Assembly (NCBI GenBank): GCA_028280345.1
Contig: JANQLY010000008.1
Location: forward strand, 29,198-93,197
Direction of reading: 5' to 3'
DNA from: Pseudomonadales bacterium
Lineage (GTDB): Bacteria; Pseudomonadota; Gammaproteobacteria; Pseudomonadales; UBA7239
DNA: 64,000 nucleotides
The notes below the pieces were generated by a model. That model saw only the letters and a program-made list of their open reading frames with translations. It ran no database searches and was not told where the DNA came from. This document shows positions 41,124-55,908 of the stretch, in pieces. The position numbers and the translations under genes were made by a program. Numbering within the stretch: the stretch's first letter is position 1; every line of letters starts with the position of its first letter.

Positions 41124-41915
41124 CTACTCCTTATTTTCCCCGCTTGCTTCAACTGGCTGTTCGTCTAGTTGACCTTGCTGTTGATCATCGCCAGACGTTT
41201 CAAGAGTGCTTTGTGCCGTCTTCGCGGCTTTGATATCGCGAATACACTGCCGGTTTAAAGAAAAAAAGAATTCTGCCGCAATCTCCGCCGAAGGCATTTG
41301 ATAAACAGCCGTCACCATCTCCGAGATATTCTGCCGATCAACCGCCGAATCAGCACCGGACATACTGACCAATGATTCAACGACCGCGTTAGCGTCATTG
41401 CCATAAAGTTTCTGATCAAGGATAAACATATGCAGATCGAGAAAACTGAAACAGAGTTTCTCTTCTGCCAGATCATAGGCAACCGATCCTGAATCGAGAC
41501 AGGCACGATAAGCCTCAAACGCAAAATTCTGTGGGTTACTGACCTGACCGGTTTTCAGCAATTCATATTGGGACTCAATAATTGGGTAAACCGGCTTATC
41601 TTTATAGTCATCAATAAACTCACGCTCAAAGTCATCAGCCACGTCATAACGCTTGAAGGTATTAAACAGCATATAATTTGACATCGCGAAATACAGACAG
41701 GTTTTGTGATGCCACAAGACCGCCACACGCTCCCCGACCTCGACAAGGTTGTCGTCCGTCAGCTGCAAAGATGGATCATCCTTGAGCACCTCCTTGATCA
41801 GCCGCTTTGTTTCCTCCCGGGAAGGTTCGGATTGGTTCGCGAATGCTGTGCTGGTAAATAGCAAGCTGGTGAGTAGAAGGAAGGTGGTGGCTATTTGGAG
41901 TGGTTGAAAGGCCAT
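41124..41915 (-). CDS. Hypothetical secreted/periplasmic protein with an acidic Q/E-rich C-terminus
   Basis: 263-aa ORF with signal peptide MAFQPLQIATTFLLLTSLLFTSTAFA/NQ. I recognise no domain. Confidence 0.6.
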   Translation of the reverse strand: MAFQPLQIATTFLLLTSLLFTSTAFANQSEPSREETKRLIKEVLKDDPSLQLTDDNLVEVGERVAVLWHHKTCLYFAMSNYMLFNTFKRYDVADDFEREFIDDYKDKPVYPIIESQYELLKTGQVSNPQNFAFEAYRACLDSGSVAYDLAEEKLCFSFLDLHMFILDQKLYGNDANAVVESLVSMSGADSAVDRQNISEMVTAVYQMPSAEIAAEFFFSLNRQCIRDIKAAKTAQSTLETSGDDQQQGQLDEQPVEASGENKE

Positions 41916-42165
41916 AATCAGTTCGAGCTAAGTCACGTAATATACATTTAGTTATCTTACGTGCTCGTTACGCAAGTAACAATGCCACCCCAACTCACCC
42001 ATTGATAATCTCGTATTCTGACTTATTAGATTTAGTAAGTGCTGGCTTTGAACAAACAATAGCACAAAAGATTTAGAGACTTTTAATGTCAGTTCGGGGC
42101 CGCACCCTAATCCTCTGCGCAAGCTATTGTTTTGAAAACACATTTTGAACCCCCTAAAAGGTGGT

Positions 42166-42251: not shown

Positions 42252-43577
42252 TTATTTATATTCAATATTCTCAAAAACAGTAATTCCAAGCTTATCTCTT
42301 ACTTGATAAAGCTGCCTGGGCAGTGCTGTAGCTAGAACCAAAACACAATCAACATCATATTTTTTCTGATTAACGTCACGCTCAGACTTTAAAACTGCAG
42401 AATACTTGATGCACTGATATAACCCTCTCTCAATATCATCATTACCTGAACGCTCCGACTTTACCTCTACCCCTAGAAGCTTGTTCAGACTCTCAAAAAC
42501 CACATCAACCGAATCGCCAGACCTTAAAGGATACTCAGGCACTCCAGTAATATTCTTATCATATCCAACCATTTCGGGGTGGGCTGCAATGTAATCACGC
42601 AAAGCCCGATGCTCAGGAGACCCTTCGCTTCCATAGGGATTGTAAAGACCTCTTCCAGGTTTTCTTTTGCTATACTTCTTGCCTATTGGGGTTATATTTA
42701 AGTTATGTAAAACTTTGTCCCATCTACCTCCAAAGCTAAATATTTTTTTATATTCAGAGAGCAAAAAGTCTTTCTTTTTTGTTGCAGTTAATTTTGGATA
42801 TGATGGATTAAATTCTTTAAGTCCATCACTAGGCAGTTTATTTCCAGAGTTAACAACCAGTGCTTGAATTATAGGTATAGTCTCGCCATCTATAGTCATC
42901 CCATCAAAAAGATGGCCCATTACGCCTAGCGTCTCACCAATTTGCTTTCCAAATAAATTTCCAGTATATGGCTTAGGGTAATTAACCGCCTCAGCCAATT
43001 CCCCATATGTAATATATTTATTACCGCCTTTAAAATCTCGAATGTGCTTGACAAGATAAGCCAAACACTTTTTTGCATATTTTTTGTGATTTATATTCTT
43101 TGACTTTTTTGCTTCGGTATCTTTGGCAGGTTTATCAGTATTTTCCAGCGGCTTAACATCTAATAATTTGCATACTATTTCTGAAGGCAGCCTTTTCTTA
43201 TATTGAGCTATTTTTTCCACGTTTGACCATAAAACACCATGCCTTCCATCTTTTCGCTCTCCAAGTAATTCTTCAATATCGCAGATATATACTATACAAG
43301 AACCTTCTCCATCCTCGCGAAATAAGCAAATATAATCTCTGTTATGCCATCCAACACTTCCGTAACTACTGTCCTCTCGACGGGTACTGCTTACCATGGC
43401 TGCCCTGTGGTGCGTATATGCCGCCACATGACAGTCCCCCCACTTGGGAATCTTGACAGTTCGACTATCAATCACCTTAGAGCTAGTAAAAAACCTCAAA
43501 CAAAATTGAATTGCTGTTTTTTTATTGGCAGCTTGATTCCCTGTTCGTGGATGTAAAACGCTGAAATTATTATTCAT
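42252..43577 (-). CDS. Uncharacterised three-part protein: unknown N-terminal domain, MGMT/ATL-like wHTH-type region, C-terminal NucS/DUF91-like PD-(D/E)xK nuclease domain
   Basis: 441-aa ORF, the last gene of the operon. Residues ~185-250 read ITYGELAEAVNYPKP...GKQIGETLGVMGHLF...IPIIQALVVNSGNKLPSDG. Residues ~320-395 read PEHRALRDYIAAHPEMVG...EYPLRSGDSVDVVFE...LLGVEVKSE...GLYQCIKYSAVL, giving D358, E371-x-K373 and a Q..Y helix. Confidence 0.6.
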   Translation of the reverse strand: MNNNFSVLHPRTGNQAANKKTAIQFCLRFFTSSKVIDSRTVKIPKWGDCHVAAYTHHRAAMVSSTRREDSSYGSVGWHNRDYICLFREDGEGSCIVYICDIEELLGERKDGRHGVLWSNVEKIAQYKKRLPSEIVCKLLDVKPLENTDKPAKDTEAKKSKNINHKKYAKKCLAYLVKHIRDFKGGNKYITYGELAEAVNYPKPYTGNLFGKQIGETLGVMGHLFDGMTIDGETIPIIQALVVNSGNKLPSDGLKEFNPSYPKLTATKKKDFLLSEYKKIFSFGGRWDKVLHNLNITPIGKKYSKRKPGRGLYNPYGSEGSPEHRALRDYIAAHPEMVGYDKNITGVPEYPLRSGDSVDVVFESLNKLLGVEVKSERSGNDDIERGLYQCIKYSAVLKSERDVNQKKYDVDCVLVLATALPRQLYQVRDKLGITVFENIEYK

Positions 43578-43602
43578 GATAAAAAAATCAGTATGTTAGA
43601 GA

Positions 43603-44256
43603 TCAATAAACATCTGCATGAGAAATTGGTACAAATTCCATGTTGTTGTTCAACTCAACTAGACCATTCTGGCTGAATGAAAATATCCTACTTTTTGGAA
43701 AAGTCTCTCTCAACTCACTCCATCCAATGCTTTTGTTGAGCCATGTTTTTTCTTTCAAACTTTCAGGCATATCATCAGGAAAATCGGGGTAATCAAATAT
43801 AGATATTTCGAGTGGTACTGCGGCAAAGATTCCTATAATTTCTTGGTTTTTAACAACCCATTCGTTATGAGACTCTATTTTTCGATTAGCAATCGTATCT
43901 TCTAGTTCATCAATAGAAATATTCTCAACTGGATTTGCATCTCTATTATCATTTTCATCAGCTCCAGATCCGCAGTCCCCTCTACATGCATTTACTATAG
44001 AGCCAGGCTCTTGAAAACCCAGGACGACTCCAATGCTTCCAATTGCATTACGAGTATTGCCATAAAAGTTATCTCCTGGCATAACAACGCTACAAGCCAA
44101 CCCATTTAACGCCCCCATGTTTAAAACATTATTAAGATCGTCCGGAAATGGATATTTATTATAGCCCGCACCCTTTGGTGTTCCTGAGAAATGAACCACC
44201 AGCGCATTATAACTTCGCAACAAAGAGATTACTGCGGATACATCTGGCCTAGCCAT
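43603..44256 (-). CDS. Hypothetical protein, orphan (no domain recognised)
   Basis: 217-aa ORF starting 35 nt after the Res stop and ending 25 nt before the next gene. It has no TM segment or signal peptide. An acidic linker (GADENDNRDANPVENISIDELED) separates two halves. Confidence 0.6.
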   Translation of the reverse strand: MARPDVSAVISLLRSYNALVVHFSGTPKGAGYNKYPFPDDLNNVLNMGALNGLACSVVMPGDNFYGNTRNAIGSIGVVLGFQEPGSIVNACRGDCGSGADENDNRDANPVENISIDELEDTIANRKIESHNEWVVKNQEIIGIFAAVPLEISIFDYPDFPDDMPESLKEKTWLNKSIGWSELRETFPKSRIFSFSQNGLVELNNNMEFVPISHADVY

Positions 44257-44291
44257 GACAAAGTTTAGTTCCTTCCACCATCTACTCCCTC

Positions 44292-47006
44292 TTATTTGGA
44301 ATATTCATACTGAGCGACAAAATCTTTTAAACTTTTATTTTCAGCTACAGCATCATGCGGAATCAGTGAATAATGCCATGATTTCCCATTGTTCTTTTTG
44401 GAATGCTCAGTAGCATTTCTACACCACTCAGACGCCGCTTCCGCTTTAGATAGAACCTCAGGGTCTTCCATGTTTACACTGGCTTTTGTTTCGGCCATAA
44501 GAATAAAGTCTTCGCCCTCAGCAACAAAATCCGGAATATACTCTTTATGATCGTTACCAGATTTATAGAATATCTTGAATTGCCCATTGGCTGGTTTAAA
44601 CCATTTTTCAGAATCCCTATCAACTATTATCGAGAAACGACGCTCAGTATCCGAATCGAACTTCTGAGGGTAATGCAGGCACTTCTTGAAACCACCAAAA
44701 AGCATTTTTCTTATATTTTTAACATCAGACACGGTTTCTCTAAAATCTTTAACAGACTCCCCTGCCGCAACCGAATATGTGGGTTTTCTCAGGTCCGTGA
44801 ATCCAGAACGAACCTCAACATCATATCCCGTCACCTCTTCCCAAAAATGCTCAGTCATTTGAGCGTGAACCAGATCAGCAATCCTGACTCGGTTGCCATC
44901 AAGGATATTAATGACTTCATCTTCTGAGAAGTCTTGAGTCTGCAAGTGCTTTACCACTTGCCCCGATAGATCGTATATAAGGTCTGCATGATCCTCATAA
45001 GAAATATCGTCATAATCAATAAGCGAATGAACAATATAATCTTCCAATCTATCTTCTTTAATACCAACTTGAGCTGATACGGTTAACTGCTCATTCGTAT
45101 GAAGATTCTGTAGCAAGATGTCCCGCTCACTGGCCTGCAAGTTAAATTTACTCAAATCAAGATCAAAATTGTTGTACCCGTAAGTCACATCTCCTTTGGG
45201 CACAACTACAACCCTTGGTATATCAATCGTCTCCTGCACTACCAATGCCGTCGCTTTTTCAACAACCGCTGCCAGGTCAACCTTCTCTTCTTCTTCCAGC
45301 AGTGATCTCTGTTGGCCAGTGATACGTTCTTCAACCTGGGATAGGACTTGTGCCTGAACTTCTGGCGATAAGAGGGATAAGCTATTTGGCGCAATATCGG
45401 GTGAATGTTGAAGCGAACTAATGACCTCAACGGTAGTCATCGCAACCTTCTGCTCTTCAACACCAGCAAACACCGGCTTAACACTGTCTGGCTTCGCATA
45501 TATGGTTCCCTGACTACCCTGAACGACAGTATTGGTAATTTGGCTCTCAAGAGTAGACGTGACTTGGACGCTCTCCTTGGGGCCAGTTTCAATATCTTCG
45601 CCAATAACAATCTGCTTCAGACGAATTGGGTTTTTCGGGTCATTGGCCTCATCTACTATCTCTTGGAACTTATCATGGGCAACAATATTCAAGCGATCCA
45701 CAGAGTCCTCTCCGGTACGCTTACCATATGGCAGGCGCAAACCTCTACCGATAGACTGCTCAATTAATGTACGGGCATTTGCTGCTCTTAAAGGTACGAT
45801 GGTGTACAGATTGGTAACATCCCAACCTTCCTTCAGCATATTAACGTGAATTACCACTTCTGTTGGCTCATCAAAGCTTTCAACGTCAAGCAAACGACGT
45901 ATCATCTCTTCTTCCGCCGCCCCAGATTTTGAGCTATCAACCTGAATTACCTTTCCTTTATAACGTCCTTCAAAAAAGCTATCGGACTCCATCAACTCCA
46001 ATAATTGAGCCGCATGGGTAATATCTCTTGCGATAACCAGCATAAATGGCTTCACCGGACTAAGCTCATTCATTTTGGCATAGGTAAGCAAGTCCACCTT
46101 GGTTATTTCATGTAGACGTATACCGTCTTCCAGCTTGATCTTTTCTACCTGCTCAGGAGTGTACTGGCTGACATCAAAGTTTTTTTGCGTGACTACGGCA
46201 GGCTCTTTTACAAACCCGTCATCCATAGCTCTTGCCAGCGGGTAATCCACCACAACATTTTTGAACTGAACAGGTCCACGGCTTGATTCTGTAAAAGGCG
46301 TAGCGGTAAGCTCCAAGCCCATCAGGGGCTTTAGCTCATTGATAGCACGAATCCCCGCACTAGCCCTGTAGCGGTGAGACTCATCCATAATCATGACGAG
46401 ATCAGGCAGGCTGGCCAAATAAGAGAAGTAGCTGTCGCCCAGGTATTCGGAAAGTCGCTTTATCCGCGGTGCTTTACCACCACGAACCTCAGAATTAATC
46501 TTTGAAATATTAAATATATTAATATCGACAGAACCCAGAAGGCTGCCGCCAGAGATATTTTGCTGTTCATAATTATCACCAGTGATAATCCTTGGCGCAT
46601 CTACAGAGAATTCTGCGATGCCTTTAAATACATACTTGGGGGTATTCGGTGTAAAGTCAGTAATCAACTTGTCATAAATTGTGAGATTGGGCGCAAGAAC
46701 AAAGAAATTTTTTATGCCATACGCGAGGTGCAAATAGGCAATAAATGCACCCATTAACCGAGTTTTACCCACACCTGTTGCCAAGGCGAAGCATAGAGAA
46801 GGAAAGTCACGCTCAAAATCTGATAGAGCGTCAAACTCTTCATGCAGTATCTTTAGAACATTATCTAAATCCTTCTCCTTCTGTAGAATATCTGGTGCTA
46901 TTTCCAACGACTTGGCCAAGACTTCAAGCGACTCATGCTGAGGAGCTCGTAGACTTAAACGTCCGTTTATTGAGTTTACGATTCGTTGATGTGTTAGGAC
47001 CGTCAT
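44292..47006 (-). CDS. res: Type III restriction enzyme Res-like subunit (SF2 helicase + C-terminal PD-(D/E)xK endonuclease)
   Basis: 904 aa. Helicase motif I is FALATGVGKTRLMG, II is IMDESHRY, III is LELTATP and VI is QSIGRGLRLPYG. The C-terminal nuclease motif is YIPDFVAEGEDFILMAETKAS. Its start overlaps the upstream Mod stop (ATGA at 47003-47006). Confidence 0.85.
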   Translation of the reverse strand: MTVLTHQRIVNSINGRLSLRAPQHESLEVLAKSLEIAPDILQKEKDLDNVLKILHEEFDALSDFERDFPSLCFALATGVGKTRLMGAFIAYLHLAYGIKNFFVLAPNLTIYDKLITDFTPNTPKYVFKGIAEFSVDAPRIITGDNYEQQNISGGSLLGSVDINIFNISKINSEVRGGKAPRIKRLSEYLGDSYFSYLASLPDLVMIMDESHRYRASAGIRAINELKPLMGLELTATPFTESSRGPVQFKNVVVDYPLARAMDDGFVKEPAVVTQKNFDVSQYTPEQVEKIKLEDGIRLHEITKVDLLTYAKMNELSPVKPFMLVIARDITHAAQLLELMESDSFFEGRYKGKVIQVDSSKSGAAEEEMIRRLLDVESFDEPTEVVIHVNMLKEGWDVTNLYTIVPLRAANARTLIEQSIGRGLRLPYGKRTGEDSVDRLNIVAHDKFQEIVDEANDPKNPIRLKQIVIGEDIETGPKESVQVTSTLESQITNTVVQGSQGTIYAKPDSVKPVFAGVEEQKVAMTTVEVISSLQHSPDIAPNSLSLLSPEVQAQVLSQVEERITGQQRSLLEEEEKVDLAAVVEKATALVVQETIDIPRVVVVPKGDVTYGYNNFDLDLSKFNLQASERDILLQNLHTNEQLTVSAQVGIKEDRLEDYIVHSLIDYDDISYEDHADLIYDLSGQVVKHLQTQDFSEDEVINILDGNRVRIADLVHAQMTEHFWEEVTGYDVEVRSGFTDLRKPTYSVAAGESVKDFRETVSDVKNIRKMLFGGFKKCLHYPQKFDSDTERRFSIIVDRDSEKWFKPANGQFKIFYKSGNDHKEYIPDFVAEGEDFILMAETKASVNMEDPEVLSKAEAASEWCRNATEHSKKNNGKSWHYSLIPHDAVAENKSLKDFVAQYEYSK

Positions 47007-48631
47007 TTGTCATCTCCAAAAAAATCTTCTTGCTCAGGATCTTCCTCAGGCAACTCCATTTGAGGCAAGCTCTTCACATTCAAACTATAGTCATCTCTAC
47101 CCCACTCGCAGCGAGACAGCACCATCTTCGGTATTTTCTTCAGCGTCAGATTTTCAAAGCGATCTGCTTTACAGCGGAAAGCACTACAACAAACCAGCAA
47201 ACTCCGACCTTCACCCACCTCTTCTGACAAGGCTTCGAGTTGCTCAACAGACAAGTTCTGAGTTGTCACATAGATAAAGTCGGTCTCTGTAGAGCGGCCA
47301 TGCTGCCACCAGACTGAGTCAGAGGGGTCATATTCAAAACCTTCAAGCTTACAGATAGCTTCTGCAAGCATCGCGGGGTTGTATTGCTGATTTACAACCC
47401 AATTGCCCCACCTATCCTTCTCTAACAAAGAAGGAGCAAGGGTGTAGTAGCGGAAACCACCACCACCTTTCCAATCTACAGACTCGCTAACACCACCATC
47501 ATCTTCCCCATCTATTACCATCTGGAGACGCGGAACAATATGGGTATCGCAGTGCTCACCAAGCTCTACCATTATCCACTTACGACCCATCTTATGAGCC
47601 ACTGCTCCAGTAGTACCAGAGCCAGCGAAGGAATCTAGAACCAAATCCCCTGGCTCACTACTCAGTGATATTATTTTTTCGAGCAATTGCTCAGGCTTCG
47701 GAGTTGCAAAAACATTATCCTCATCACTGAACATTGATTTTAGATGTGTACTTGCTATTTTATTACTACCAAAGTCTTCATGATTCCACCATGTATTTGG
47801 AGTCAGCTCATCTTTCATCTCATTTAAGTATTTTTTTAACATGGGTCTTCCGTCGCCTTTAAGCCCAAAGGTAATTCTTCCATCATTGAGCCATTCATTG
47901 AACTGCTCTAAATTGCATCTCCAATAACGATTTTTAGGCGGGAGGAATTTCTTTCCTGTCGGACCTGTTATCTCATATTGTCCCGCTGAATAAAATTTTC
48001 CGGCAGATAGGTTCTCCGATTTCCATGGTCCACGAGGATCACTATCAGGATTCTTAAACTTGGCTTTTTGCTCTACGGTTCTCGGCAATTTACCAAGCCT
48101 TGTTGCCATTTGGTTTTTTGCGTATAGCAATATATGGTCATTTGTACTCGACACATGCCGAGCAGTTTGATTGGATGTATATGCTTTTTGCCAAGATATA
48201 TCTGCAACAAAGTTAGCTCTGCCAAAAACCTCATCACAGAGCACTTTCAAATAATGCGCTTCATTGTCATCTATAGTAACCCACAACCATCCATCTTCTT
48301 TTAAGAGTGATCTAATAACTTCCAACCTCTCTCTTATTAAAGATAACCATATGGAATGCTCAAGACCATCTTCATAGTGCTCAAATGCACTACCGGTGTT
48401 ATAGGGTGGATCAATAAATACGCACTTTACTTTTCCAGCATAGTCCTGCTCTAAAGCCTTTAATGCCAATAGGTTGTCACCGAATATCAACTTATTATCA
48501 AAGATGTCATCGTCGGTGACTTTATGCTTGGCATGATAGGAATTACTCGGATCTTCTAATAGAATCCGTGGCTCAGGTTTTGGCCTTTTATCTTTACCTA
48601 TCCAAGTAAGCTCTAGCTTAGTTTTACTCAT
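47003..48631 (-). CDS. mod: Mod-type (beta-class) N6-adenine DNA methyltransferase, copy 2
   Basis: 542 aa. Motif IV FIDPPYNTG (aa ~72-80) precedes motif I DSFAGSGTTG (aa ~333-342), the order seen in type III Mods. It is a paralogue of the upstream gene. Confidence 0.85.
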   Translation of the reverse strand: MSKTKLELTWIGKDKRPKPEPRILLEDPSNSYHAKHKVTDDDIFDNKLIFGDNLLALKALEQDYAGKVKCVFIDPPYNTGSAFEHYEDGLEHSIWLSLIRERLEVIRSLLKEDGWLWVTIDDNEAHYLKVLCDEVFGRANFVADISWQKAYTSNQTARHVSSTNDHILLYAKNQMATRLGKLPRTVEQKAKFKNPDSDPRGPWKSENLSAGKFYSAGQYEITGPTGKKFLPPKNRYWRCNLEQFNEWLNDGRITFGLKGDGRPMLKKYLNEMKDELTPNTWWNHEDFGSNKIASTHLKSMFSDEDNVFATPKPEQLLEKIISLSSEPGDLVLDSFAGSGTTGAVAHKMGRKWIMVELGEHCDTHIVPRLQMVIDGEDDGGVSESVDWKGGGGFRYYTLAPSLLEKDRWGNWVVNQQYNPAMLAEAICKLEGFEYDPSDSVWWQHGRSTETDFIYVTTQNLSVEQLEALSEEVGEGRSLLVCCSAFRCKADRFENLTLKKIPKMVLSRCEWGRDDYSLNVKSLPQMELPEEDPEQEDFFGDDK

Positions 48632-48638
48632 TCAAACC

Positions 48639-50261
48639 TCAATCATCATCGAACATGCTAACTTGTTCAGGGTCTTCCTCAGGCAACTCCATCAGAGGCA
48701 AGTTCTTCACATTCAAGCTATAGTCATCTCTACCCCACTCGCAGCGGGACAGTACCATCTTCGGTATTTTCTTCAGCGTCAGGTTTTCAAGCCGATCTGC
48801 TTTACAGCGAAACGCGCTACAGCAAACCAGTAAACTGCGATCTTCACCAACCTCTTCCGATAGAGCTTCAAGTTGCTCTACTGAGAGATTTTGAGTTGTC
48901 ACATAGATAAAGTCGGTCTCTGTAGAGCGGCCATGCTGCCACCACAAAGAATCAGAGGGCTCATACTCAAAACCCTCTAGCTTACAAATGGCCTCGGCTA
49001 ACATCGCAGGATTATACTGTTGGTTTACAATCCAATTGCCCCACCTATCTTTCTCTAGCAGCGACGGGGCCAAGGTGTAATAACGGAAGCCACCGCCACC
49101 TTTCCAATTATTAGTTTTGGTAATACCGCCCTCATCTTCTCCATCTACCACTTTTTTTAGCCGAGGGACAATATGGGTATCACAGTGCTCACCAAGCTCC
49201 ACCATAATCCACTTGCGGCCCATCTTATGAGCTACCGCTCCAGTAGTGCCCGAACCCGCAAAGGAATCTAAAACCAAATCACCAGGGTTCGTCGCAAGAT
49301 GCACAACCCTTTCAAGTAGTCTCTCTGGTTTTGGGGTTGCAAAAGCAGAGTCTGCTCCAAATAATTTATGCCCCTCTTTTTTTGCTTCTTGTGAATGACC
49401 TACTTCAGAGTGCGTCCACCAAGACCAAGGAACCATACCAGGCATATCCGATAAAAATCTTTTTAGAGATGGCAAACTATCGCCTTTTGGACCATAGTAC
49501 ATTCTATTTTCACTTGTAAATTTTTCAAACCCTTCCTTAGTTACTCGCCAACAGCGGCCTGCCGACGGTGTTACAGACCTTCCTGAAGGTAGAGTAATGG
49601 CATACATTTGATTTGGTCTATAACCAGCAGCCGTGAAGTCACTAGCCTTCCATGGACCTCTTGGGTCATCATCAGGGTTTTTAAACTGTTTTGTTTGTTT
49701 CTCGTCAAGGGGAAGTAAATTTCGTGCTTGTTTAAATCTTGAAGGACTAGACGCGTAACATAGCAAATGCTCGTGAGCATCACTAATAGCTACTCGAGCA
49801 TCAGGTGAATATCGCTTCTGCCATAAAATATTCGCAACAAAACTTGATCTACCGAAAATCTCATCACATAGTACTTTCAAATAATGCGCCTCATGGTCAT
49901 CAATTGTTATCCACAATGAACCATCATCAGCAAGAAGATTTTTGATGATCTCCAATCTATCTTGCATCAAGCCCAACCAAATAGAATGCTCAAGACCATC
50001 TTCATAGTGCTCAAATGCACTTCCAGTGTTATAGGGCGGGTCAATAAATACGCACTTCACTTTTCCTGAATAGTCGTGCTCCAAAGCTTTTAATGCCAAC
50101 AGGTTGTCACCGAATATCAACTTATTATCAAAGATGTCACGGTCGGTAACTTTATGCTTGGCATGATAGGACTTGCTCGGATCTTCTAATAAAATCCGAG
50201 GTTCTAGCTTAGGTCTTTTATCCTTACCGACCCAGGTTAATTCAAGTTTATTTTTGCTCAT
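48639..50261 (-). CDS. mod: Mod-type (beta-class) N6-adenine DNA methyltransferase, copy 1
   Basis: 540 aa with the same motifs. The N-terminal ~150 aa and C-terminal ~200 aa are near-identical to copy 2, while the central ~170 aa are strongly divergent. Confidence 0.85.
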   Translation of the reverse strand: MSKNKLELTWVGKDKRPKLEPRILLEDPSKSYHAKHKVTDRDIFDNKLIFGDNLLALKALEHDYSGKVKCVFIDPPYNTGSAFEHYEDGLEHSIWLGLMQDRLEIIKNLLADDGSLWITIDDHEAHYLKVLCDEIFGRSSFVANILWQKRYSPDARVAISDAHEHLLCYASSPSRFKQARNLLPLDEKQTKQFKNPDDDPRGPWKASDFTAAGYRPNQMYAITLPSGRSVTPSAGRCWRVTKEGFEKFTSENRMYYGPKGDSLPSLKRFLSDMPGMVPWSWWTHSEVGHSQEAKKEGHKLFGADSAFATPKPERLLERVVHLATNPGDLVLDSFAGSGTTGAVAHKMGRKWIMVELGEHCDTHIVPRLKKVVDGEDEGGITKTNNWKGGGGFRYYTLAPSLLEKDRWGNWIVNQQYNPAMLAEAICKLEGFEYEPSDSLWWQHGRSTETDFIYVTTQNLSVEQLEALSEEVGEDRSLLVCCSAFRCKADRLENLTLKKIPKMVLSRCEWGRDDYSLNVKNLPLMELPEEDPEQVSMFDDD

Positions 50262-50276
50262 TTAACACATCAGACA

Positions 50277-52082
50277 TTAATTAGTTACTAACTCTAGTTG
50301 ATTAGCTTTACTGGAAAGCACTCTATATAAAGCTTGATTGTATGGATCATTGCCAGCCACTCTGCCAATTAGATTCTGCACGGTCTCATCATCCACTAAA
50401 TTTAAATACTCAATCCACACTTTGTAGATCAAGTCTTTTGTATCGGGAATTCGCTTAAAAAAAGCGTGAGGGGCAGCTCCTTGCGCCTGAGCTTCATAAT
50501 TGTCAGCAAACAACTGCCTTACTTCATCAAATGGCGTACTAAATGTTAATGCAATATCCGCCTCACTCAACAATGAATCACCATCAATTTCATCTTTAAA
50601 GTGCTTCATAAGAATAGAAATGATGGCGTAGCTGCAATGCCTGTAAACAAGCTTTTCTGGGCTAATTGATCCTTTTTCAGCAGTCAGAATAAGCTTATGC
50701 AATTGCTCATAAACCAATGTAGCGTTAACGGCTTTGATGCCAGTTAAATCATCGGTAAATATTTTTTTATAGGCTTCCGAATTAACAGTCGTAAACTGAC
50801 TCGGATCAGATTTCAATCTTGCCGGATATCGTATATCAACATATAAACAACCCAAAGCCTTTGATAAGCTTTCAATCGTTATCACCTTAACGCCTGTGGT
50901 CGAAACTCTCTGTGGTCGGTAATGGTACTCTACGCCATAGAGTTTAATTTCTTGACGCAATCTCTCTTGATTGTCATCAAGAGCAGCAAAATTGGATAGC
51001 TCAACAGGGTTTTGTAAGTTTCTAGCCTTTGTTACTTTCTTATGAAATTGCTCTTGCCCTGTATTAATAAGGGTTACCATGACTTGAGCTGTAGATATGT
51101 CTGCGTCTGGGTGCTCATCAACGAATTGTGAGGCCGACGAAATTGTCTGAGCCCCATTAACCACCGAAAGCCCGAGAACATTAAAATTTTTAGTCAATGT
51201 TGAACCCCTAACATTTGACTTTGCCTCTACATGATTGCCAACCATTGTTATGCCATTATTTAAATACTGAAAATTTTCAGGCTCATTAACTAATGTATCT
51301 CTTATTGCAGTGTTTACCCCTCTCTTTCCGGAGCCGATATAATATCGAATATTCTTTTCGTAAAGCTTTTTCCCATGCTTTTCGTATAAACCCACCAATT
51401 CACTGACCCTCATAAGCCCAAAGACAGAATATCGAGGGCTGCTTGAAGTGCGGTATTTATGGATTTTTACTTTTTCATTAATTGGTCGTACTGCACTTTC
51501 TTCCCTCAAGGCCGCTTCAATATCATCTGCACCAAATACGATAGGGTCTACTTGTAACTGCTCTTCACCACCATCAATTAAATCTTGCAGCTTTTGTCTT
51601 AGCTCATTCGATGCCTGCTGAGAAACCCCGTCTCCAGTACAAGCAATCAAAAGACATATTTTTTCACACTCATCAAGTGCATTCTCAATGTACTGCTCAA
51701 TATTTTTTACATTTTGGTTAAATGAATCAAAGTCTTTTGCAAGAATAAGCTCCAATCCGCTGATTAACGCCTGCGCTTCAGACAATTTAAATTGCTCGCT
51801 CTCTTTAAGTTTGGATTGAATTATGTAGAGCGTTTTACTTGCATCATCATAATAAAAAGCATCAATTCCATGATCCTCATAATCATCAACAACCAAACGA
51901 GAAGCCGTTAAAGCGTCCACTTCAAACTTAGTACTAATAGCATAGGCACTGAGTGCTCTAGATATTTCTTTTGTTGCCGCATCTACTGGGTTAGCATTCC
52001 CCAATAATGGCGGAAGATGGGGAACATACCTCTCATCCAAAATCTTCTTCAAGGCAGTTATCATTGCGGGCTGCATAGCCAT
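50277..52082 (-). CDS. AIPR-like (abortive infection phage resistance family) protein with a possible N-terminal D...QxK nuclease-like motif
   Basis: 601 aa. YLNNGITMVGN and LSVVNGAQTISS match AIPR-family signatures as I remember them. The N-terminus has HGIDAFYYDD...LYIIQSKL. Its start codon overlaps the SNF2 stop (TAATG at 52080-52084). Confidence 0.6.
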   Translation of the reverse strand: MAMQPAMITALKKILDERYVPHLPPLLGNANPVDAATKEISRALSAYAISTKFEVDALTASRLVVDDYEDHGIDAFYYDDASKTLYIIQSKLKESEQFKLSEAQALISGLELILAKDFDSFNQNVKNIEQYIENALDECEKICLLIACTGDGVSQQASNELRQKLQDLIDGGEEQLQVDPIVFGADDIEAALREESAVRPINEKVKIHKYRTSSSPRYSVFGLMRVSELVGLYEKHGKKLYEKNIRYYIGSGKRGVNTAIRDTLVNEPENFQYLNNGITMVGNHVEAKSNVRGSTLTKNFNVLGLSVVNGAQTISSASQFVDEHPDADISTAQVMVTLINTGQEQFHKKVTKARNLQNPVELSNFAALDDNQERLRQEIKLYGVEYHYRPQRVSTTGVKVITIESLSKALGCLYVDIRYPARLKSDPSQFTTVNSEAYKKIFTDDLTGIKAVNATLVYEQLHKLILTAEKGSISPEKLVYRHCSYAIISILMKHFKDEIDGDSLLSEADIALTFSTPFDEVRQLFADNYEAQAQGAAPHAFFKRIPDTKDLIYKVWIEYLNLVDDETVQNLIGRVAGNDPYNQALYRVLSSKANQLELVTN

Positions 52083-54934
52083 TACGCCACCTCCCAGTGT
52101 ATTGACAATATTTCTGACTCAGATACCTTCTGAACCAACTTATCTTCTAAACCCTGAATCAAAGTATCACGACGCACATCAACCTCGTCCTGCCTATCAA
52201 AAAGCTCTCTTCTTAACTTATTCCGCTTCTTTTCCATTTCCTTTTGCTGCTTCTGTAAATCAAGCTTTTCTTCTAGGGTCATCACAAATTTGGCCATTTT
52301 ACGAACCCCATTAATTTCCTTTTCGAGTTCCTTTATTTCCTGCTCTATGCCCTGTTTCTGGTCATCCGCCCAAGCATCAAGCTTATCTATCTCTTCACTA
52401 AAAAACTCAAGGTTACGGCTATTAATAGCCTCGATAACCGTCTGCTTCTCATCTTCCAACCTTTTATTAAGCGATTCCGGTATAACCCCATCAGCTTCTC
52501 CAACCACTTCAGCAGAATACATCCACAAAGACTCAACCTGATCTCTATTTAAAAACTCGCCATCTTCAGACTGAGAGACCATTACAATAACGTCCTCAAC
52601 CTCACCAAATGTCTCAACAGAAAGTAGCAGCATTCTCAGCCACCCAGACTCTCCGACTAGGGTCTCAACCTTTGTGGAAGAAACTGGGTTGTTAGAGTAA
52701 TCAAACCTGATTGTAGAGAACGGTAGCTCCTGAGCCTTGGCACTATCAATGATCGCGCCTGCCAATGGATGCCTGACTCCAAAGGCATGAGCATCTTCAA
52801 TGTTCTTTCCTATCTCATAGTCGCCCAGCGGTATGCTTGCTTCAGCTAATGGCGGCAGCCCCTTTAAAGAAAACCTATGGCGACTCGCATCGAATTCTGC
52901 AAAGCCTTCAAGTCTATTCTTCGACAAATCCCATAACCTCTGGCTATATTTATCCAGATATGCCTTGCTTTCCCTTAAATTAACCTTGAGTTTGTCATGA
53001 ACTTCGGCATCGAAATTTTCCAGCAATTTCTGTCTGGTTGAATCCATTGCAACATTTATTTGTTCATCCAGCTCTGACCTTAGCTCCTCAAACTGAAAGT
53101 CAATTTGCTCAGGCTCTCGGCACGTCTGGTATATATCAACAATTCGATTTTCAAATTCCACCCCAGACTCAATAGCCCCTAGAACTTCATCACTTGCACC
53201 AAAGACTCCGCTGAATAGATTGAATTTTTGATCCAGAAGCTCAAACACTCGTTGATCTGCCGCATTAGCCCTATTTAAAAAGTTTATAACCACTACGTCA
53301 TGTTTCTGACCATAGCGATGGCATCGGCCAATGCGCTGCTCAATCCTTTGAGGGTTCCATGGGAGATCATAATTTACCAGTAGGGAGCAGAACTGAAGAT
53401 TGATGCCCTCTGCTGCCGCTTCTGTCGCAATCATAATCTGCGCATCTTCACGAAAATAATCTACCAAAGCCGCTCTCATATCCGCAGTTCGAGACCCCGT
53501 TACCCGATCACTACCGGCATACGCCTCTTTCCAGTCTGAATATATCTGCTTTGATTTTTCATCATTATTTGAACCATTAAACAAGACAATTTTATCTTGA
53601 TAGCCTCGATCACCAAGCAGCTTAACCAAGTAGTTCTGCGTTCGCCTTGATTCTGTAAAGATAATTGCCTTGTTAGCCGCACCTAACTCCTCTGCTTTTT
53701 TGAAACCTGTTTCTAGCGCATCTATCAATGCCAATCCCTTAGCATTCTCGGTAATAGACACAGCTAAATCTTTGAAAACGGTAAGCTCACCAATCTCTTC
53801 ATTTATTGCTGCAATATCTTCTTCTGTTAGAGGCTCATTTTCATCCTCTATCTCAAACTCATCCTCATACTCTTCCAGTAATTCAAAATCTTCTTCTAGT
53901 GACTCCAGCCTATCGACCAGCCTCTGATTCTCCTTAAGCTGCCTATTCAACTTGTTGACCAGAGAATCTAGTGCTCCAGCTATCGCAAAAGTCGATGAGG
54001 CCAATAATTTTCTCATCACCAGTGTCATCAGCTTACGCTGGGCATTCGGTAATGCACACAGCTCAGGTCTTTGAAGATAACCAGATACCATGTCATACAA
54101 ATCTTGCTCATCTTGAGTTGGCCAGAACTCTTGAGTGATGGGCAATCGGTTCGTATATTTCACATACTCAAGCACCTGTCTTCTCAATGTCCTATGACAC
54201 AGAGGGCTTAAACGAACTTTTAATTCCGCAAACTGAGAATCATTGGTGATTCTCGAATACTGAGCTTTGAAACTTTTCTCATCCCCAAATGCAAATTCGT
54301 CAATAAAGCTCACCAATCCATACAACTCCATCAACGAATTTTGCAAAGGGGTTGCGGTAAGAAGAACTTTGGGTACGTTTGCAAGTGCCGTCCTTAAGGC
54401 TCTGGCTGTTTTATTCTGCTTCTTATATACATTTCTCAGACGATGCGCCTCATCCAGAATGACAAGGTCCCACTTCACCAACATCAATTCTTCTGCATGG
54501 CGAGCAGCAAATGGATAGGAACAAATCAAAATCTCAGTATGCTCAAACGGGTTTGACTTGCCCTGCTTGATGGCACTGTTCCACGTACGCGCTTCCAGAA
54601 TATATGATGGCAAAAAGAATTTATCGGCAAGCTCCTGACTCCACTGCTTCCTTAAACTGGCGGGCACGATAATTATTATTCTTCTCTTACCCTCAGCCCA
54701 TTTCTGCGATAACACCAAACCCGCCTCAATAGTCTTACCCAAGCCAACTTCATCGGCCAGTATTGCCCCATTGGATAGTGGAGACTTAAAGGCAAACAGG
54801 GCCGCTTCTACCTGATGCGGATTTAAATCAACCTGAGCATCCATCAATGTACCGGCAAACTTCTCCATGCTGTCTGAGGAGCATCGCTTGCTAAGCTCAT
54901 GAGCGAAATATTTAGCGTGGTAGTCGGTAATCAC
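52082..54934 (-). CDS. SNF2-family helicase with a ~350-aa uncharacterised C-terminal extension ending in a coiled coil
   Basis: 950 aa. Motif I is LADEVGLGKTIEAG, II is LDEAHRLRN, III is LLTATPLQNSLMELY, and V/VI is ATEAAAEGINLQ...WNPQRIEQRIGRCHRYGQK. The C-terminus is rich in E/K heptads (EIKELEKEINGVRK...KQQKEMEKKRNKLRREL). Confidence 0.88.
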   Translation of the reverse strand: MITDYHAKYFAHELSKRCSSDSMEKFAGTLMDAQVDLNPHQVEAALFAFKSPLSNGAILADEVGLGKTIEAGLVLSQKWAEGKRRIIIIVPASLRKQWSQELADKFFLPSYILEARTWNSAIKQGKSNPFEHTEILICSYPFAARHAEELMLVKWDLVILDEAHRLRNVYKKQNKTARALRTALANVPKVLLTATPLQNSLMELYGLVSFIDEFAFGDEKSFKAQYSRITNDSQFAELKVRLSPLCHRTLRRQVLEYVKYTNRLPITQEFWPTQDEQDLYDMVSGYLQRPELCALPNAQRKLMTLVMRKLLASSTFAIAGALDSLVNKLNRQLKENQRLVDRLESLEEDFELLEEYEDEFEIEDENEPLTEEDIAAINEEIGELTVFKDLAVSITENAKGLALIDALETGFKKAEELGAANKAIIFTESRRTQNYLVKLLGDRGYQDKIVLFNGSNNDEKSKQIYSDWKEAYAGSDRVTGSRTADMRAALVDYFREDAQIMIATEAAAEGINLQFCSLLVNYDLPWNPQRIEQRIGRCHRYGQKHDVVVINFLNRANAADQRVFELLDQKFNLFSGVFGASDEVLGAIESGVEFENRIVDIYQTCREPEQIDFQFEELRSELDEQINVAMDSTRQKLLENFDAEVHDKLKVNLRESKAYLDKYSQRLWDLSKNRLEGFAEFDASRHRFSLKGLPPLAEASIPLGDYEIGKNIEDAHAFGVRHPLAGAIIDSAKAQELPFSTIRFDYSNNPVSSTKVETLVGESGWLRMLLLSVETFGEVEDVIVMVSQSEDGEFLNRDQVESLWMYSAEVVGEADGVIPESLNKRLEDEKQTVIEAINSRNLEFFSEEIDKLDAWADDQKQGIEQEIKELEKEINGVRKMAKFVMTLEEKLDLQKQQKEMEKKRNKLRRELFDRQDEVDVRRDTLIQGLEDKLVQKVSESEILSIHWEVA

Positions 54935-54937
54935 AGA

Positions 54938-55129
54938 TCAACTGTCCTTGTCCTCAGATTGGTTATGATGGTCATCCATCCATTGCTCTAATTCAGACTT
55001 CTTAAAACGCCAACTACCCCCTACTTTGAAGCCAGGTATCTTTCCTGCAGCTGCCAGTCTATAGGTGGTCTTTTCAGCGAGCTTTAAGTATTCAGCCACC
55101 TCTTTAAGGGTGAAAATTTCATCATCCAT
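54938..55129 (-). CDS. Small excisionase/MerR-type helix-turn-helix DNA-binding protein
   Basis: The track ORF extends to 55237, but the conserved part starts at ATG 55129: MDDEIFTLKEVAEYLKLAEKTTYRLAAAGKIPGFKVGGSWRFKKSELEQWMD (63 aa). It ends 3 nt before the SNF2 start. Confidence 0.75.
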   Translation of the reverse strand: MDDEIFTLKEVAEYLKLAEKTTYRLAAAGKIPGFKVGGSWRFKKSELEQWMDDHHNQSEDKDS

Positions 55130-55314
55130 TAATATGTTCTCAATATTTCCGCTTGAGAGAATAGTTGAAAAATGGGGAAATGACAAACCTATAGTTTTAG
55201 TATGGTTATACACCCTAATCTTTGTGCTTATTAGCAATTAGGTATTAGGAAAAAAGACCGGATCAGCCCTCTGAACCAGCCTTTCACGTGTCTGTCAGTT
55301 TATGTATTGCCATT

Positions 55315-55364
55315 TGTTGGTATCACGCCTAAATTGAACCAAGAATACCAACACGATACCAACA
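55315..55364. promoter_or_regulatory. 10-bp perfect inverted repeat TGTTGGTATC (55315-55324) / GATACCAACA (55355-55364) with a 30-bp spacer, plus a third ATACCAAC copy at 55345-55352. It is a candidate operator or recombination site upstream of the operon.
   Basis: Read directly. It lies ~80-235 bp upstream of the HTH gene start candidates, and its right arm coincides with the right island direct repeat. Confidence 0.45.
55346..55363. repeat. Right copy of the island-flanking direct repeat
   Basis: The sequence is TACCAACACGATACCAAC. Confidence 0.6.
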
Positions 55365-55593
55365 ATTAGCGTTAATTCACAGGGTACGCATGGGACAATA
55401 TGGGACGTCAATATAGGTATAACTTATTGTTTTTATTGTATTTTAGGTACCACCATGGACGCCATGGGACCCAGTGGGAAACGAGGAGTGGTACCCAAAG
55501 CATTCGTTCTCCTCATGGGGCAGGCTCTACCCGGGGCTGGGCGAAACGGATCAGAAAACGATTGAGTATCGTTTTTCCGCTGAGCGCCCGAAG

Positions 55594-55671: not shown

Positions 55672-55758
55672 TGGTGCCCGGGGCCGGACTTGAACCGGCA
55701 CGGCCGTGAAGCCGGGAGATTTTAAGTCTCCTGTGTCTACCAATTCCACCACCCGGGC
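55672..55758 (-). tRNA. leuZ: tRNA-Leu, anticodon UAA (type II, long variable arm)
   Basis: The reverse complement is GCCCGGGTGGTGGAATTGGTAGACACAGGAGACTTAAAATCTCCCGGCTTCACGGCCGTGCCGGTTCAAGTCCGGCCCCGGGCACCA. It has a 7-bp acceptor stem, anticodon loop CTTAAAA and an encoded CCA, and it closely resembles E. coli leuZ. Confidence 0.93.
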
Positions 55759-55834: not shown

Positions 55835-55908
55835 TGGAGGCGCGGGTCGGAATCGAACCGGCGTACACGGAGTTGCAGTCCGCTGCATAACCACTCTGCC
55901 ACCGCGCC
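55835..55908 (-). tRNA. cysT: tRNA-Cys, anticodon GCA
   Basis: The reverse complement is GGCGCGGTGGCAGAGTGGTTATGCAGCGGACTGCAACTCCGTGTACGCCGGTTCGATTCCGACCCGCGCCTCCA. It folds as a cloverleaf with one C-A mismatch in the T stem, and CCA is encoded. Confidence 0.9.

Follow-up and report, generated by a model that had tools for sequence, protein, structure and literature searches.

A probable horizontally acquired defense island built on an SNF2-associated type III-like restriction-modification module in a Pseudomonadales bacterium

We analyzed a 64,000-nucleotide stretch of contig JANQLY010000008.1 from a Pseudomonadales bacterium (assembly GCA_028280345.1), here called the window, and focused on a block of eight minus-strand genes at positions 42252 to 55237. 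In gene order, the block encodes a small helix-turn-helix (HTH) protein, an SNF2-family helicase, an AIPR-family protein, two Mod methyltransferases (Mod1 and Mod2), a Res protein, and two orphan proteins, p217 and p441 (Table 1). We conclude, with a probability of about 70%, that the block is a horizontally acquired defense island. Its backbone would be an SNF2-associated type III-like restriction-modification (R-M) module, joined by an embedded AIPR gene, a second Mod gene, and two orphan cargo genes.

The composition and position of the block set it apart from its surroundings. Its GC content is 41.8%, compared to 52.4% in the left flank and 50.9% in the right flank. Housekeeping genes lie on both sides (ftsK, lolA, rarA, serS, trxB, aat, bpt, and infA on the left; tRNA-Leu(taa), tRNA-Cys, pgsA, uvrC, and uvrY on the right), and the block, which falls between the tRNA-Leu/tRNA-Cys cluster and infA, is therefore best regarded as an insertion beside the tRNA cluster. 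No integrase was found at the island, and the window copy carries no mobility genes. A tRNA-derived attachment (att) repeat was sought at the far end of the island; the best candidate, a match of 10 nucleotides (nt), was rejected because 43 of 300 shuffled sequences equaled it. A megablast search of the block against 5,426 complete Escherichia coli genomes returned no match. From HTH to p441, the intergenic junctions measure +3, -1, +15, +7, -4, +35, and +25 nt. A preliminary description of the locus, drawn from the sequence alone, had reported the eight packed open reading frames (ORFs) at these coordinates with junctions of -4 to +35 nt, the 3-nt gap between HTH and SNF2, a TAATG overlap of SNF2 and AIPR (52080-52084), an ATGA overlap of Mod2 and Res (47003-47006), and the AT richness of the block. 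All of these were recovered on the minus strand, and every motif that it quoted for SNF2, AIPR, both Mods, and Res was located. Its domain calls likewise stood: HTH_17, SNF2-rel_dom with Helicase_C, AIPR, N6_N4_Mtase twice, and ResIII, with no family for the last two genes.

Conservation of the block was examined in 60 loci obtained with an AIPR alignment as the query (a scan of genome contigs with the single AIPR protein had given nothing), and all eight window proteins were compared to these loci by tblastn. In 23 chromosomal loci from Gamma-, Alpha-, and Zetaproteobacteria and Verrucomicrobia, the genes follow the order SNF2-AIPR-Mod-Res, with an HTH gene leading in some. Identity to the window proteins in these 23 loci ranges from 48 to 63% for SNF2, 47 to 67% for Mod, and 53 to 65% for Res. 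The AIPR homologs hold the same position in all 23 complete loci at 35 to 65% identity, and homologs of 52 to 65% identity are common in Gammaproteobacteria. Of the 29 AIPR-lineage loci that contain Mod, 13 have an HTH homolog (53 to 71% identity) immediately ahead of SNF2. In a Calditrichaceae locus, the gene order is likewise kept, and the SNF2 at the contig start is partial; the other loci of the AIPR lineage are cut by contig ends or are indeterminate. Below about 35% identity, AIPR proteins mostly lack SNF2, Mod, and Res neighbors, with a lone exception (L039) at 30%. HTH_17-SNF2-AIPR-Mod-Res units adjoin integrases in E. coli, Vibrio cholerae, and Marinobacter nauticus; the E. coli block has matches in 30 of the 5,426 complete genomes, and in 20 of these the match covers at least 80% of the block. 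The RefSeq names of the E. coli copies are generic.

To remove the bias toward AIPR, Res was used as the seed against annotated plasmids, which yielded seven independent lineages. SNF2 lies directly upstream of Mod-Res, slot genes aside, in all seven. The order is SNF2-Mod-Res, with AIPR absent, on Ketogulonicigenium and Paracoccus plasmids; SNF2-unknown-Mod-Res on Roseomonas and Sphingopyxis plasmids; WYL-SNF2-AAA_21-DUF4276-Mod-Res on an Aeromonas plasmid; SNF2-AIPR-HTH-VapC-Mod-Res on a Deinococcus plasmid; and HTH-SNF2-IS256-Abi_2-Mod-Res on a Salmonella IncFIB plasmid. An HTH gene is annotated ahead of SNF2 in 3 of 10 plasmid loci, and AIPR is absent or replaced in five or six of the seven lineages. 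Given these gene orders, the invariant part is SNF2, Mod, and Res, a constant trio usually led by a small HTH gene. A variable slot separates SNF2 from Mod; AIPR fills it more often than any other gene but is optional, and in other genomes the slot holds Abi_2, AAA_21 with DUF4276, HNH, or RhuM, or is empty.

Three insertion slots were recognized in the related loci: between SNF2 and AIPR or Mod, between Mod and Res, and after Res. Their contents elsewhere include Abi_2, PHP-SMC ATPases, an AAA ATPase with an S8 protease, HNH, RhuM, Fic, Schlafen/AlbA_2, YhcG, PDDEXK_3, the Shedu protein SduA, and GmrSD. The second Mod, p217, and p441 of the window sit at such slot positions. The second Mod is absent from all other sampled loci, and tblastn detected neither a p217 nor a p441 homolog in the AIPR-seeded loci. 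We conclude that p217 and p441 are cargo specific to the window, from families found in unrelated defense islands. The proposed gene neighborhood check divided the block: the linkage of SNF2, Mod, and Res is constant and frequently extends to AIPR, whereas p217 and p441 occur in unrelated contexts. For three of the eight genes (p217, p441, and the second Mod), homologs never accompanied the Mod/Res core in the other loci sampled, a finding that the preliminary description had named as telling against it, and its view that tight packing makes the eight genes one functional unit was not supported.

Several related loci merit description in their own right. In V. cholerae (L008/L009, positions ~6900 to 16300), the copy lies between RadC/DUF2787 genes and an integrase beside rpoD/dnaG, and the V. 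cholerae AIPR cluster comprises 438 member sequences; this position seems to resemble a variant of the VSP-II island. The Salmonella IncFIB plasmid NZ_CP100694.1 (L073) and 14 similar Salmonella plasmids are conjugative multidrug resistance plasmids that carry the module near floR and tet(A); in L073, IS256 follows SNF2 and the AIPR gene has been lost, with Mod and Res intact. On an Aeromonas media plasmid (L075), the slot between SNF2 and Mod (4009-5777) holds the AAA_21 ATPase and DUF4276 genes, and a WYL regulator stands in place of HTH. DUF4276, the Mad4 domain of the MADS system, is found in Menshen NsnC-like proteins as well. A pair of genes for an AAA ATPase and a Peptidase_S8 protein was seen twice, in the p217 neighborhood of a Paraburkholderia locus (L071, 1107-4733) and in the SNF2-AIPR slot of the Calditrichaceae locus (L025, 681-4049). 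This pair, which Rousset et al. listed in P4 hotspots, looks like a mobile two-gene defense candidate.

The R-M core carries the sequence hallmarks of type III systems, as had been proposed. Both Mods (PADLOC MTase_III, 732 to 748 bits) have the beta-class order of motif IV (DPPYNTG at residue 74), target recognition domain (TRD), and motif I (FAGSGTTG at residue 334 or 335), with the Pfam domain N6_N4_Mtase. Res (REase_III, 680 bits) combines the motifs of a superfamily 2 (SF2) ATPase (ATGVGKT at residue 76, MDESH at 207, LTATP at 233, and QSIGRGLR at 417) with a C-terminal PD-(D/E)xK nuclease (PDF at 825 and AETK at 838). Motifs I, II, III, and VI and the nuclease residues P825-D826...E839-x-K841 are invariant in 27 homologs, and the methyltransferase motifs of Mod are likewise invariant in the family. 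As expected for a type III pair, mod is immediately upstream of res, and the Mod2 stop overlaps the Res start. Res scores 41.8 bits against the EcoP15I-type NCBIfam model PRK15483 (cutoff, 564), a weak match.

The two Mods are paralogs that differ chiefly in one region. Identity is ~90 to 95% in residues 1 to 148 and 327 to 540 but only ~30% in residues 149 to 326, the stretch between motif IV and motif I where the TRD of beta-class enzymes lies. In the two regions flanking the TRD, the ratio of nonsynonymous to synonymous divergence (dN/dS) is 0.073 in one and 0.052 in the other; the corresponding dS values are 1.30 and 1.12. The high dS and low dN/dS therefore point to an old duplication with no recent gene conversion and with both copies under purifying selection. 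The best relatives of the two TRDs in the sampled loci are 42 to 44% identical, none of them close. In EcoP15I, the N-terminal and methyltransferase domains form the Mod dimer, the C-terminal domain of one protomer contacts Res, and DNA is read by the TRD of the Res-contacting protomer only (PMC4490356). Since the dimerization and Res-contact regions of Mod1 and Mod2 are nearly identical and the TRDs differ, one Res would most likely serve two recognition specificities, by analogy to EcoP15I, through Mod homodimers or heterodimers.

Domain calls also confirmed the SNF2 and AIPR identifications made earlier. The helicase contains the Pfam domains SNF2-rel_dom and Helicase_C, with LADEVGLGKT at residue 59, DEAHRLRN at 161, TATPLQN at 193, and QRIGRCHRYGQ at 533; motifs I, II, III, and VI are invariant in 28 homologs. 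Its best matches are DrmD models, namely, PADLOC PDLC02619 (714 bits) and NCBIfam DrmD_b (725 bits), the latter below its cutoff of 950 and over residues 29 to 669 only; NCBIfam DrmD scores 273 against a cutoff of 610. The C-terminal domain also occurs on Klebsiella and E. coli IncF, Cupriavidus, and Blastomonas plasmids, where the order is HTH-SNF2-methyltransferase-DEAD/DEAH helicase and the methyltransferase and helicase genes are much larger. Over its full length, the window SNF2 shares 46% identity with the SNF2 of the IncF plasmid, while the adjacent Mod and Res of that plasmid align to those of the window at catalytic motifs only. HTH-SNF2 is therefore a cassette found in combination with several Mod/Res lineages. 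In the E. coli IncF plasmid pEC316_2 (L077, 7765-17517), this variant encodes a 1,046-amino-acid (aa) methyltransferase and a 1,120-aa helicase. It has psiB/psiA and a ParB-like gene within a few kilobases, a position that appears to be the leading region of the plasmid. Similar arrangements were seen in 11 Klebsiella plasmids, and the whole L077 block is found in 2 of the 5,426 complete E. coli genomes.

The HTH protein is likely the transcriptional controller of the operon. Its 99-aa ORF is a mechanical TTG call, and both the HTH domain and the PADLOC and NCBIfam matches start only at residues 37 to 42. Together with an ATG at 55129 and a promoter-like site at 55186 to 55158, this domain start argues for a 63-aa protein, and the gene most likely begins at ATG 55129. 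The promoter-like site is a candidate operon promoter, of a kind not enriched in the region. Within the block, promoter-like and terminator-like sites do not exceed their frequency in shuffled sequence, and the intergenic gaps contain none of them; it is therefore plausible that all eight genes share one transcript. The HTH protein barely passes the NCBIfam MAD1 model (81.3 bits; cutoff, 80) and matches PADLOC mad1 at 1e-8. Between the HTH gene and tRNA-Leu, at 55309 to 55370, we noted a 16-nt inverted repeat (GCCATTTGTTGGTATC / GATACCAACAATTAGC, 30 nt apart), possibly an operator or a remnant of the insertion event.

AIPR is described as a protein commonly encoded by R-M operons (Iyer et al. 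2008; PMC2292703). In the window protein, the AIPR domain (PF10592) scores 129 bits against a gathering cutoff of 25, with NNGITMV at residue 275 and VNGAQT at 308. Stand-alone AIPR genes occur in P4 satellite hotspots and on small plasmids, and Rousset et al. (2022) listed and cloned one from P4 hotspots. The AIPR alignment had no match among IMG/VR viral contigs, and no usable match came from profile searches of the PDB with the alignments of AIPR, p217, and p441. N-terminal to the Pfam domain, residues 65 to 92 (window positions ~51807 to 51890) contain an invariant series, D65-D66-x2-D69-x-G71-x-D73...Q88-S89-K90. Its D73...Q88-S-K90 portion resembles the D...QxK motif of Mrr-type nucleases; 1 of 20 family members matched Mrr_cat_2, at an E value of 0.37, from which we infer at most a possible hidden Mrr-like nuclease.

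For p217, no family was found in Pfam, NCBIfam, or PADLOC, and a permissive Pfam scan of all family members gave noise only. The AlphaFold model is confident (predicted local distance difference test, 90.3). Its best structural match in the PDB is the CteC ADP-ribosyltransferase (ART), a weak one (E value, 0.1 to 0.3; probability, 0.35 to 0.47; template modeling score, 0.36 to 0.42); there was no PDB sequence match and no match among BFVD viral structures. The invariant residues H22/S24, S56, and E132 are at most suggestive of such a fold when set against the H/R...S...E triad of ARTs. Three members have annotated contexts: one follows a BamHI-like R-M system with SNF2 and NOV_C on a conjugative element, another adjoins SMODS-SLATT genes, and the third comes after BREX PglZ-BrxL. 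The family was also detected in 52 metagenomic loci, and none of the 22 that span at least 5 kb contains any other gene of the window block.

The start of p441 is uncertain. A 391-aa version is in the protein database, and the first ~160 residues lack homologs and are modeled with low confidence. Most homologs are stand-alone proteins of ~283 aa that correspond to the C-terminal 63% of p441. No family was found for the window protein in Pfam, NCBIfam, or PADLOC; other members of its family show weak NucS_C, Tox-REase-9, and NERD matches. From residue 160, the model is confident, and Foldseek aligned it with EndoMS/NucS, Cdn1, Can2, XisH, and R2 endonuclease at probabilities of 0.94 to 1.0. With D358, E371-x-K373, and Q388...Y392 conserved, the C terminus is, in fold and residues, a predicted PD-(D/E)xK nuclease. 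Members of the family adjoin housekeeping genes or HicB genes, or form part of a type I/AAA_21 cluster.

Table 1. Positions and assignments of features in and beside the eight-gene block (window coordinates)
Feature	Position	Strand	Assignment and remarks
p441	42252..43577	-	Unique N-terminal ~160 aa, conserved helical domain, and predicted C-terminal PD-(D/E)xK nuclease (~nt 42255-42560)
p217	43603..44256	-	Orphan family of ~220-230 aa; 44 homolog clusters
Res	44292..47006	-	904 aa; SF2 helicase-type ATPase with C-terminal PD-(D/E)xK nuclease; Pfam ResIII 1e-22; PADLOC REase_III 680 bits
Mod2	47003..48631	-	542 aa; paralog of Mod1; PADLOC MTase_III 748 bits; TRD ~149-327 (nt 47651-48187)
Mod1	48639..50261	-	540 aa; beta-class amino-methyltransferase; PADLOC MTase_III 731.5 bits, full length; TRD ~149-326 (nt 49284-49817)
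AIPR	50277..52082	-	601 aa; AIPR-family (AbiU-like) protein; Pfam AIPR (PF10592) 3e-37; PADLOC AbiU 1.5e-36
SNF2	52082..54934	-	950 aa; SNF2-family helicase/translocase; DrmD-like core and family-specific C-terminal domain with coiled-coil tail
HTH	54938..55129	-	63 aa (most likely start); HTH_17/excisionase-type DNA-binding protein; Pfam HTH_17 7e-18; mechanical ORF reaches 55237
Promoter-like site	55158..55186	-	TTGTCA-17-TATTCT; consensus scan; 29 nt before the likely start codon of HTH
tRNA-Leu(taa)	55672..55758	-	ARAGORN; landmark of the insertion site
tRNA-Cys	55835-55908		Neighbor of tRNA-Leu(taa)

These components suggest how the island may work. In E. coli, the type III mod-res pair EcoR22I is associated with a DrmD-related SNF2 helicase; mod and res alone gave methylation-sensitive restriction of lambda-vir and cell death triggered by Ocr, and suppressor transposon insertions fell in mod and res only, with none in SNF2 (Silas et al., bioRxiv 10.1101/2023.04.06.535777). 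In the window, a Mod dimer would mark host DNA at short asymmetric sites, and complexes of the dimer with Res (Mod2-Res) would cut incoming DNA that is unmodified, following ATP-triggered communication between sites of the kind seen in EcoP15I. Operon expression would be under the control of the HTH protein, and the DrmD-like SNF2 translocase would be an auxiliary motor, probably dispensable for basic restriction by analogy to EcoR22I. AIPR may be a semiautonomous AbiU-type second-line module within the operon, analogous to PrrC in a type I locus and to the Ocr-triggered death of EcoR22I. The old duplication of Mod, with both copies kept, is specific to the window. So are the genes for p217 and p441, which were added after Res; their products probably act independently while sharing operon transcription.

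Several points weigh against reading the block as an R-M module with accessory and cargo genes. We infer restriction, the methylation motifs, cotranscription, and the roles of SNF2 and AIPR at this locus. The AIPR-seeded sample is biased to AIPR-containing loci, and the unbiased Res-seeded sample is small, with seven lineages, all on plasmids. SNF2 is never missing from the sampled Mod/Res subfamily and so could be essential here, unlike in EcoR22I; one locus, L021, has no SNF2 within 3.4 kb upstream of AIPR, but a contig end makes it indeterminate. The AIPR position, kept across phyla, could reflect functional integration rather than hitchhiking, and the close placement of p217 and p441, at 25 to 35 nt, would also suit functional coupling in this particular host.

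A more unified interpretation, which we consider doubtful, treats HTH-SNF2 as a general adaptor that makes type III Mod-Res a layered immune hub. SNF2 would sense blocked or overwhelmed restriction, as caused by DNA mimics or modified phage DNA, and license the slot effector, and Mod1/Mod2 heterodimers with one Res would provide combinatorial specificity. If this were so, SNF2-slot-Mod-Res would be a distinct unnamed defense class rather than type III R-M plus neighbors.

PADLOC-style annotation would divide the locus into type III R-M, AbiU, and orphan DrmD/mad1 matches, and this division can also be taken at face value. The block would then be a plain island of fully independent systems (HTH-SNF2, AIPR, Mod-Res, and two single-gene systems) with no functional link. 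That EcoR22I mod and res suffice for restriction and death, with no transposon hits in SNF2, fits this possibility, as do the stand-alone AIPR genes of P4 hotspots and small plasmids. However, SNF2 is upstream of Mod/Res in every Res-seeded lineage and every complete AIPR-seeded locus, and such linkage in different phyla speaks for a functional connection of SNF2 to Mod-Res; the HTH-SNF2 cassette is moreover joined to at least two other Mod/Res lineages. We regard full independence as unlikely.

At the other extreme, all eight genes could form one obligate multicomponent system, acting as a single complex or pathway. The eight codirectional genes with their close junctions, the absence of an intergenic terminator-like site, and the uniformly low GC content across the block are what such a system would predict. 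Nevertheless, no other sampled locus joins p217, p441, or a second Mod to the core, the p217 and p441 families reside in unrelated islands, and independent defense genes are tightly packed in R-M-type operons throughout the related loci. This makes a single system improbable.

R-M systems are known as addiction modules, and the module might mainly serve a mobile element through postsegregational killing or stabilization, element competition, or epigenetic regulation by the two methyltransferases, with phage defense secondary. Related copies on conjugative and multidrug resistance plasmids, beside integrases, and in satellite-like islands are in keeping with such a role. Against it, the nuclease and ATPase motifs are strictly conserved, the slots hold the classic antiphage genes Abi_2, SduA, and GmrSD, the EcoR22I relative restricts lambda-vir, and the window copy lacks integrase and mobility genes; we find it quite improbable. 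Lastly, a degenerate or variant class 1 DISARM, with DrmABC lost or replaced by Res, is very improbable: SNF2 does match DrmD models best and is paired with an adenine-type methyltransferase as in class 1 DISARM, but the DrmD_b score is partial and below cutoff, the eight proteins include no DrmA, DUF1998/DrmB, or phospholipase D-like (PLD) DrmC, and the DrmABC-less architecture is conserved across phyla and is therefore not a decay product.

Other features of the window were recorded alongside the island. Between the island and infA lie two minus-strand ORFs for which no significant family match was found, one of 63 aa (41952-42143) and one of 263 aa (41124-41915) with a signal peptide-like N terminus and an intermediate GC content of 47%. 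A giant ORF of at least 9,253 aa (2-27760, minus strand; first ATG at 27694) runs off the start of the window and encodes a signal peptide-like N terminus and Big_7 bacterial Ig-like repeats; it is probably, judging from these features, a giant surface adhesin. ORFs of at least 150 aa are sparse in the first 28 kb because this ORF occupies the region. The host PgsA, TrxB, and UvrY proteins are each the sole member of their own 90% identity cluster among ~15 billion proteins, and the host lineage is poorly sampled; its gene order points to a gammaproteobacterium.

Whichever account of SNF2 is preferred, the architecture is spread over at least five bacterial groups, and copies also reside in a V. 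cholerae island and on plasmids of E. coli, Salmonella, and Klebsiella. Its unity nevertheless escapes standard annotation, which divides it into type III R-M, AbiU, and orphan helicase matches. The natural experiment provided by the window has three parts. A single Res accompanies two Mods that have both been kept and diverge in the TRD alone; an AIPR gene is embedded in an R-M operon; and two orphan families, p217 with a confident unmatched fold and p441 with a NucS/Can2-like nuclease, are candidates for new single-gene defense functions. More generally, tight operon packing in defense islands does not imply a single system.

Relative to known systems, the preliminary description had held that the content could not be assigned to BREX, DISARM, Dnd/Ssp, Druantia, or Zorya, and no defining component of these was detected in the eight proteins. 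For BREX, there were no PglZ or BrxC domains, and the sole match was that of a BrxHI/II helicase model to SNF2. For DISARM, DrmA, DrmB (DUF1998), and DrmC (PLD) were absent from the eight proteins, the lone DrmA match being a generic helicase match by SNF2. The likeness to class 1 DISARM lies in a DrmD-like SNF2 beside an amino-methyltransferase in a methylation-based defense locus; the window differs in that restriction presumably falls to a type III Res and that SNF2 stays below the DrmD thresholds. ARMADA, the BREX-related "BR" system, and Hma were rejected, as their methyltransferases and helicases are different.

The MAD1 match drew attention to MADS (mad1 to mad8 of Pseudomonas aeruginosa), likewise a methylation-based multigene operon. 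Its authors define that system by MAD6 to MAD8, mandatory in their detection model, with MAD1 an accessory regulator, and its methyltransferase recognizes a bipartite type I-like site. No mad model in PADLOC matched AIPR, Res, p217, or p441, NCBIfam gave only MAD1 for HTH, and for SNF2 and the Mods, none appeared among the PADLOC matches listed, so that any match would be weaker than ~1e-13 to 1e-22. Since MAD6 to MAD8 were not detected, membership in MADS was rejected. The 601-aa protein belongs to the AIPR family and matches AbiU; its match to the MzaE model of Mza, at 54 bits, is far below the cutoff of 1050, no MutL or Z1 proteins were found among the eight, and this AIPR clade is fixed between SNF2 and Mod. 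Second-line genes inside R-M or BREX operons have precedent in PrrC of the EcoprrI type I locus and the GmrSD-type BrxU of BREX. The window family resembles these in carrying slot genes (Abi_2, GmrSD, SduA, AAA_21 with DUF4276, and AIPR) inside a methylation-based operon. No name for SNF2-AIPR-Mod-Res was found in the literature searched, in which subscription journals were thinly covered, so that this absence is no proof.

Type III enzymes are Mod2Res1-2 assemblies that hemimethylate an asymmetric site and depend on ATP and on two unmodified sites in inverse orientation for cleavage. With EcoP15I and EcoP1I, the window shares the beta-class Mod order of motif IV, TRD, and motif I, a Res of SF2 type with a C-terminal PD-(D/E)xK nuclease, and the mod-res stop/start overlap. 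It differs in the always-linked SNF2, the HTH gene, the accessory slots, the two Mods, and the low PRK15483 score. The closest counterpart by architecture is EcoR22I, to which the window was compared by published description. The core of the content that had been left unassigned is not without precedent, since the EcoR22I architecture was already published. The kind of module, an SNF2-associated type III-like R-M system, had already been noticed in E. coli; the second Mod, p217, and p441 are window-specific additions. Neither AIPR nor a second Mod nor p217/p441 is reported for EcoR22I. The EcoR22I Res is larger (catalytic D1024/D1043) than the 904-aa protein of the window and therefore probably belongs to a different Mod/Res lineage; the large Res of L077, considered as a candidate for EcoR22I itself, was rejected because it has E and P at residues 1024 and 1043. 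EcoR22I is the sole experimental relative and worked without SNF2, which was dispensable there, whereas SNF2 is always present in the loci described here. What the two share is a DrmD-related SNF2 with type III mod and res and a PD-(D/E)xK Res; EcoR22I, itself at a mobile-element hotspot, exemplifies an R-M system able to feed an abortive, cell-death response.

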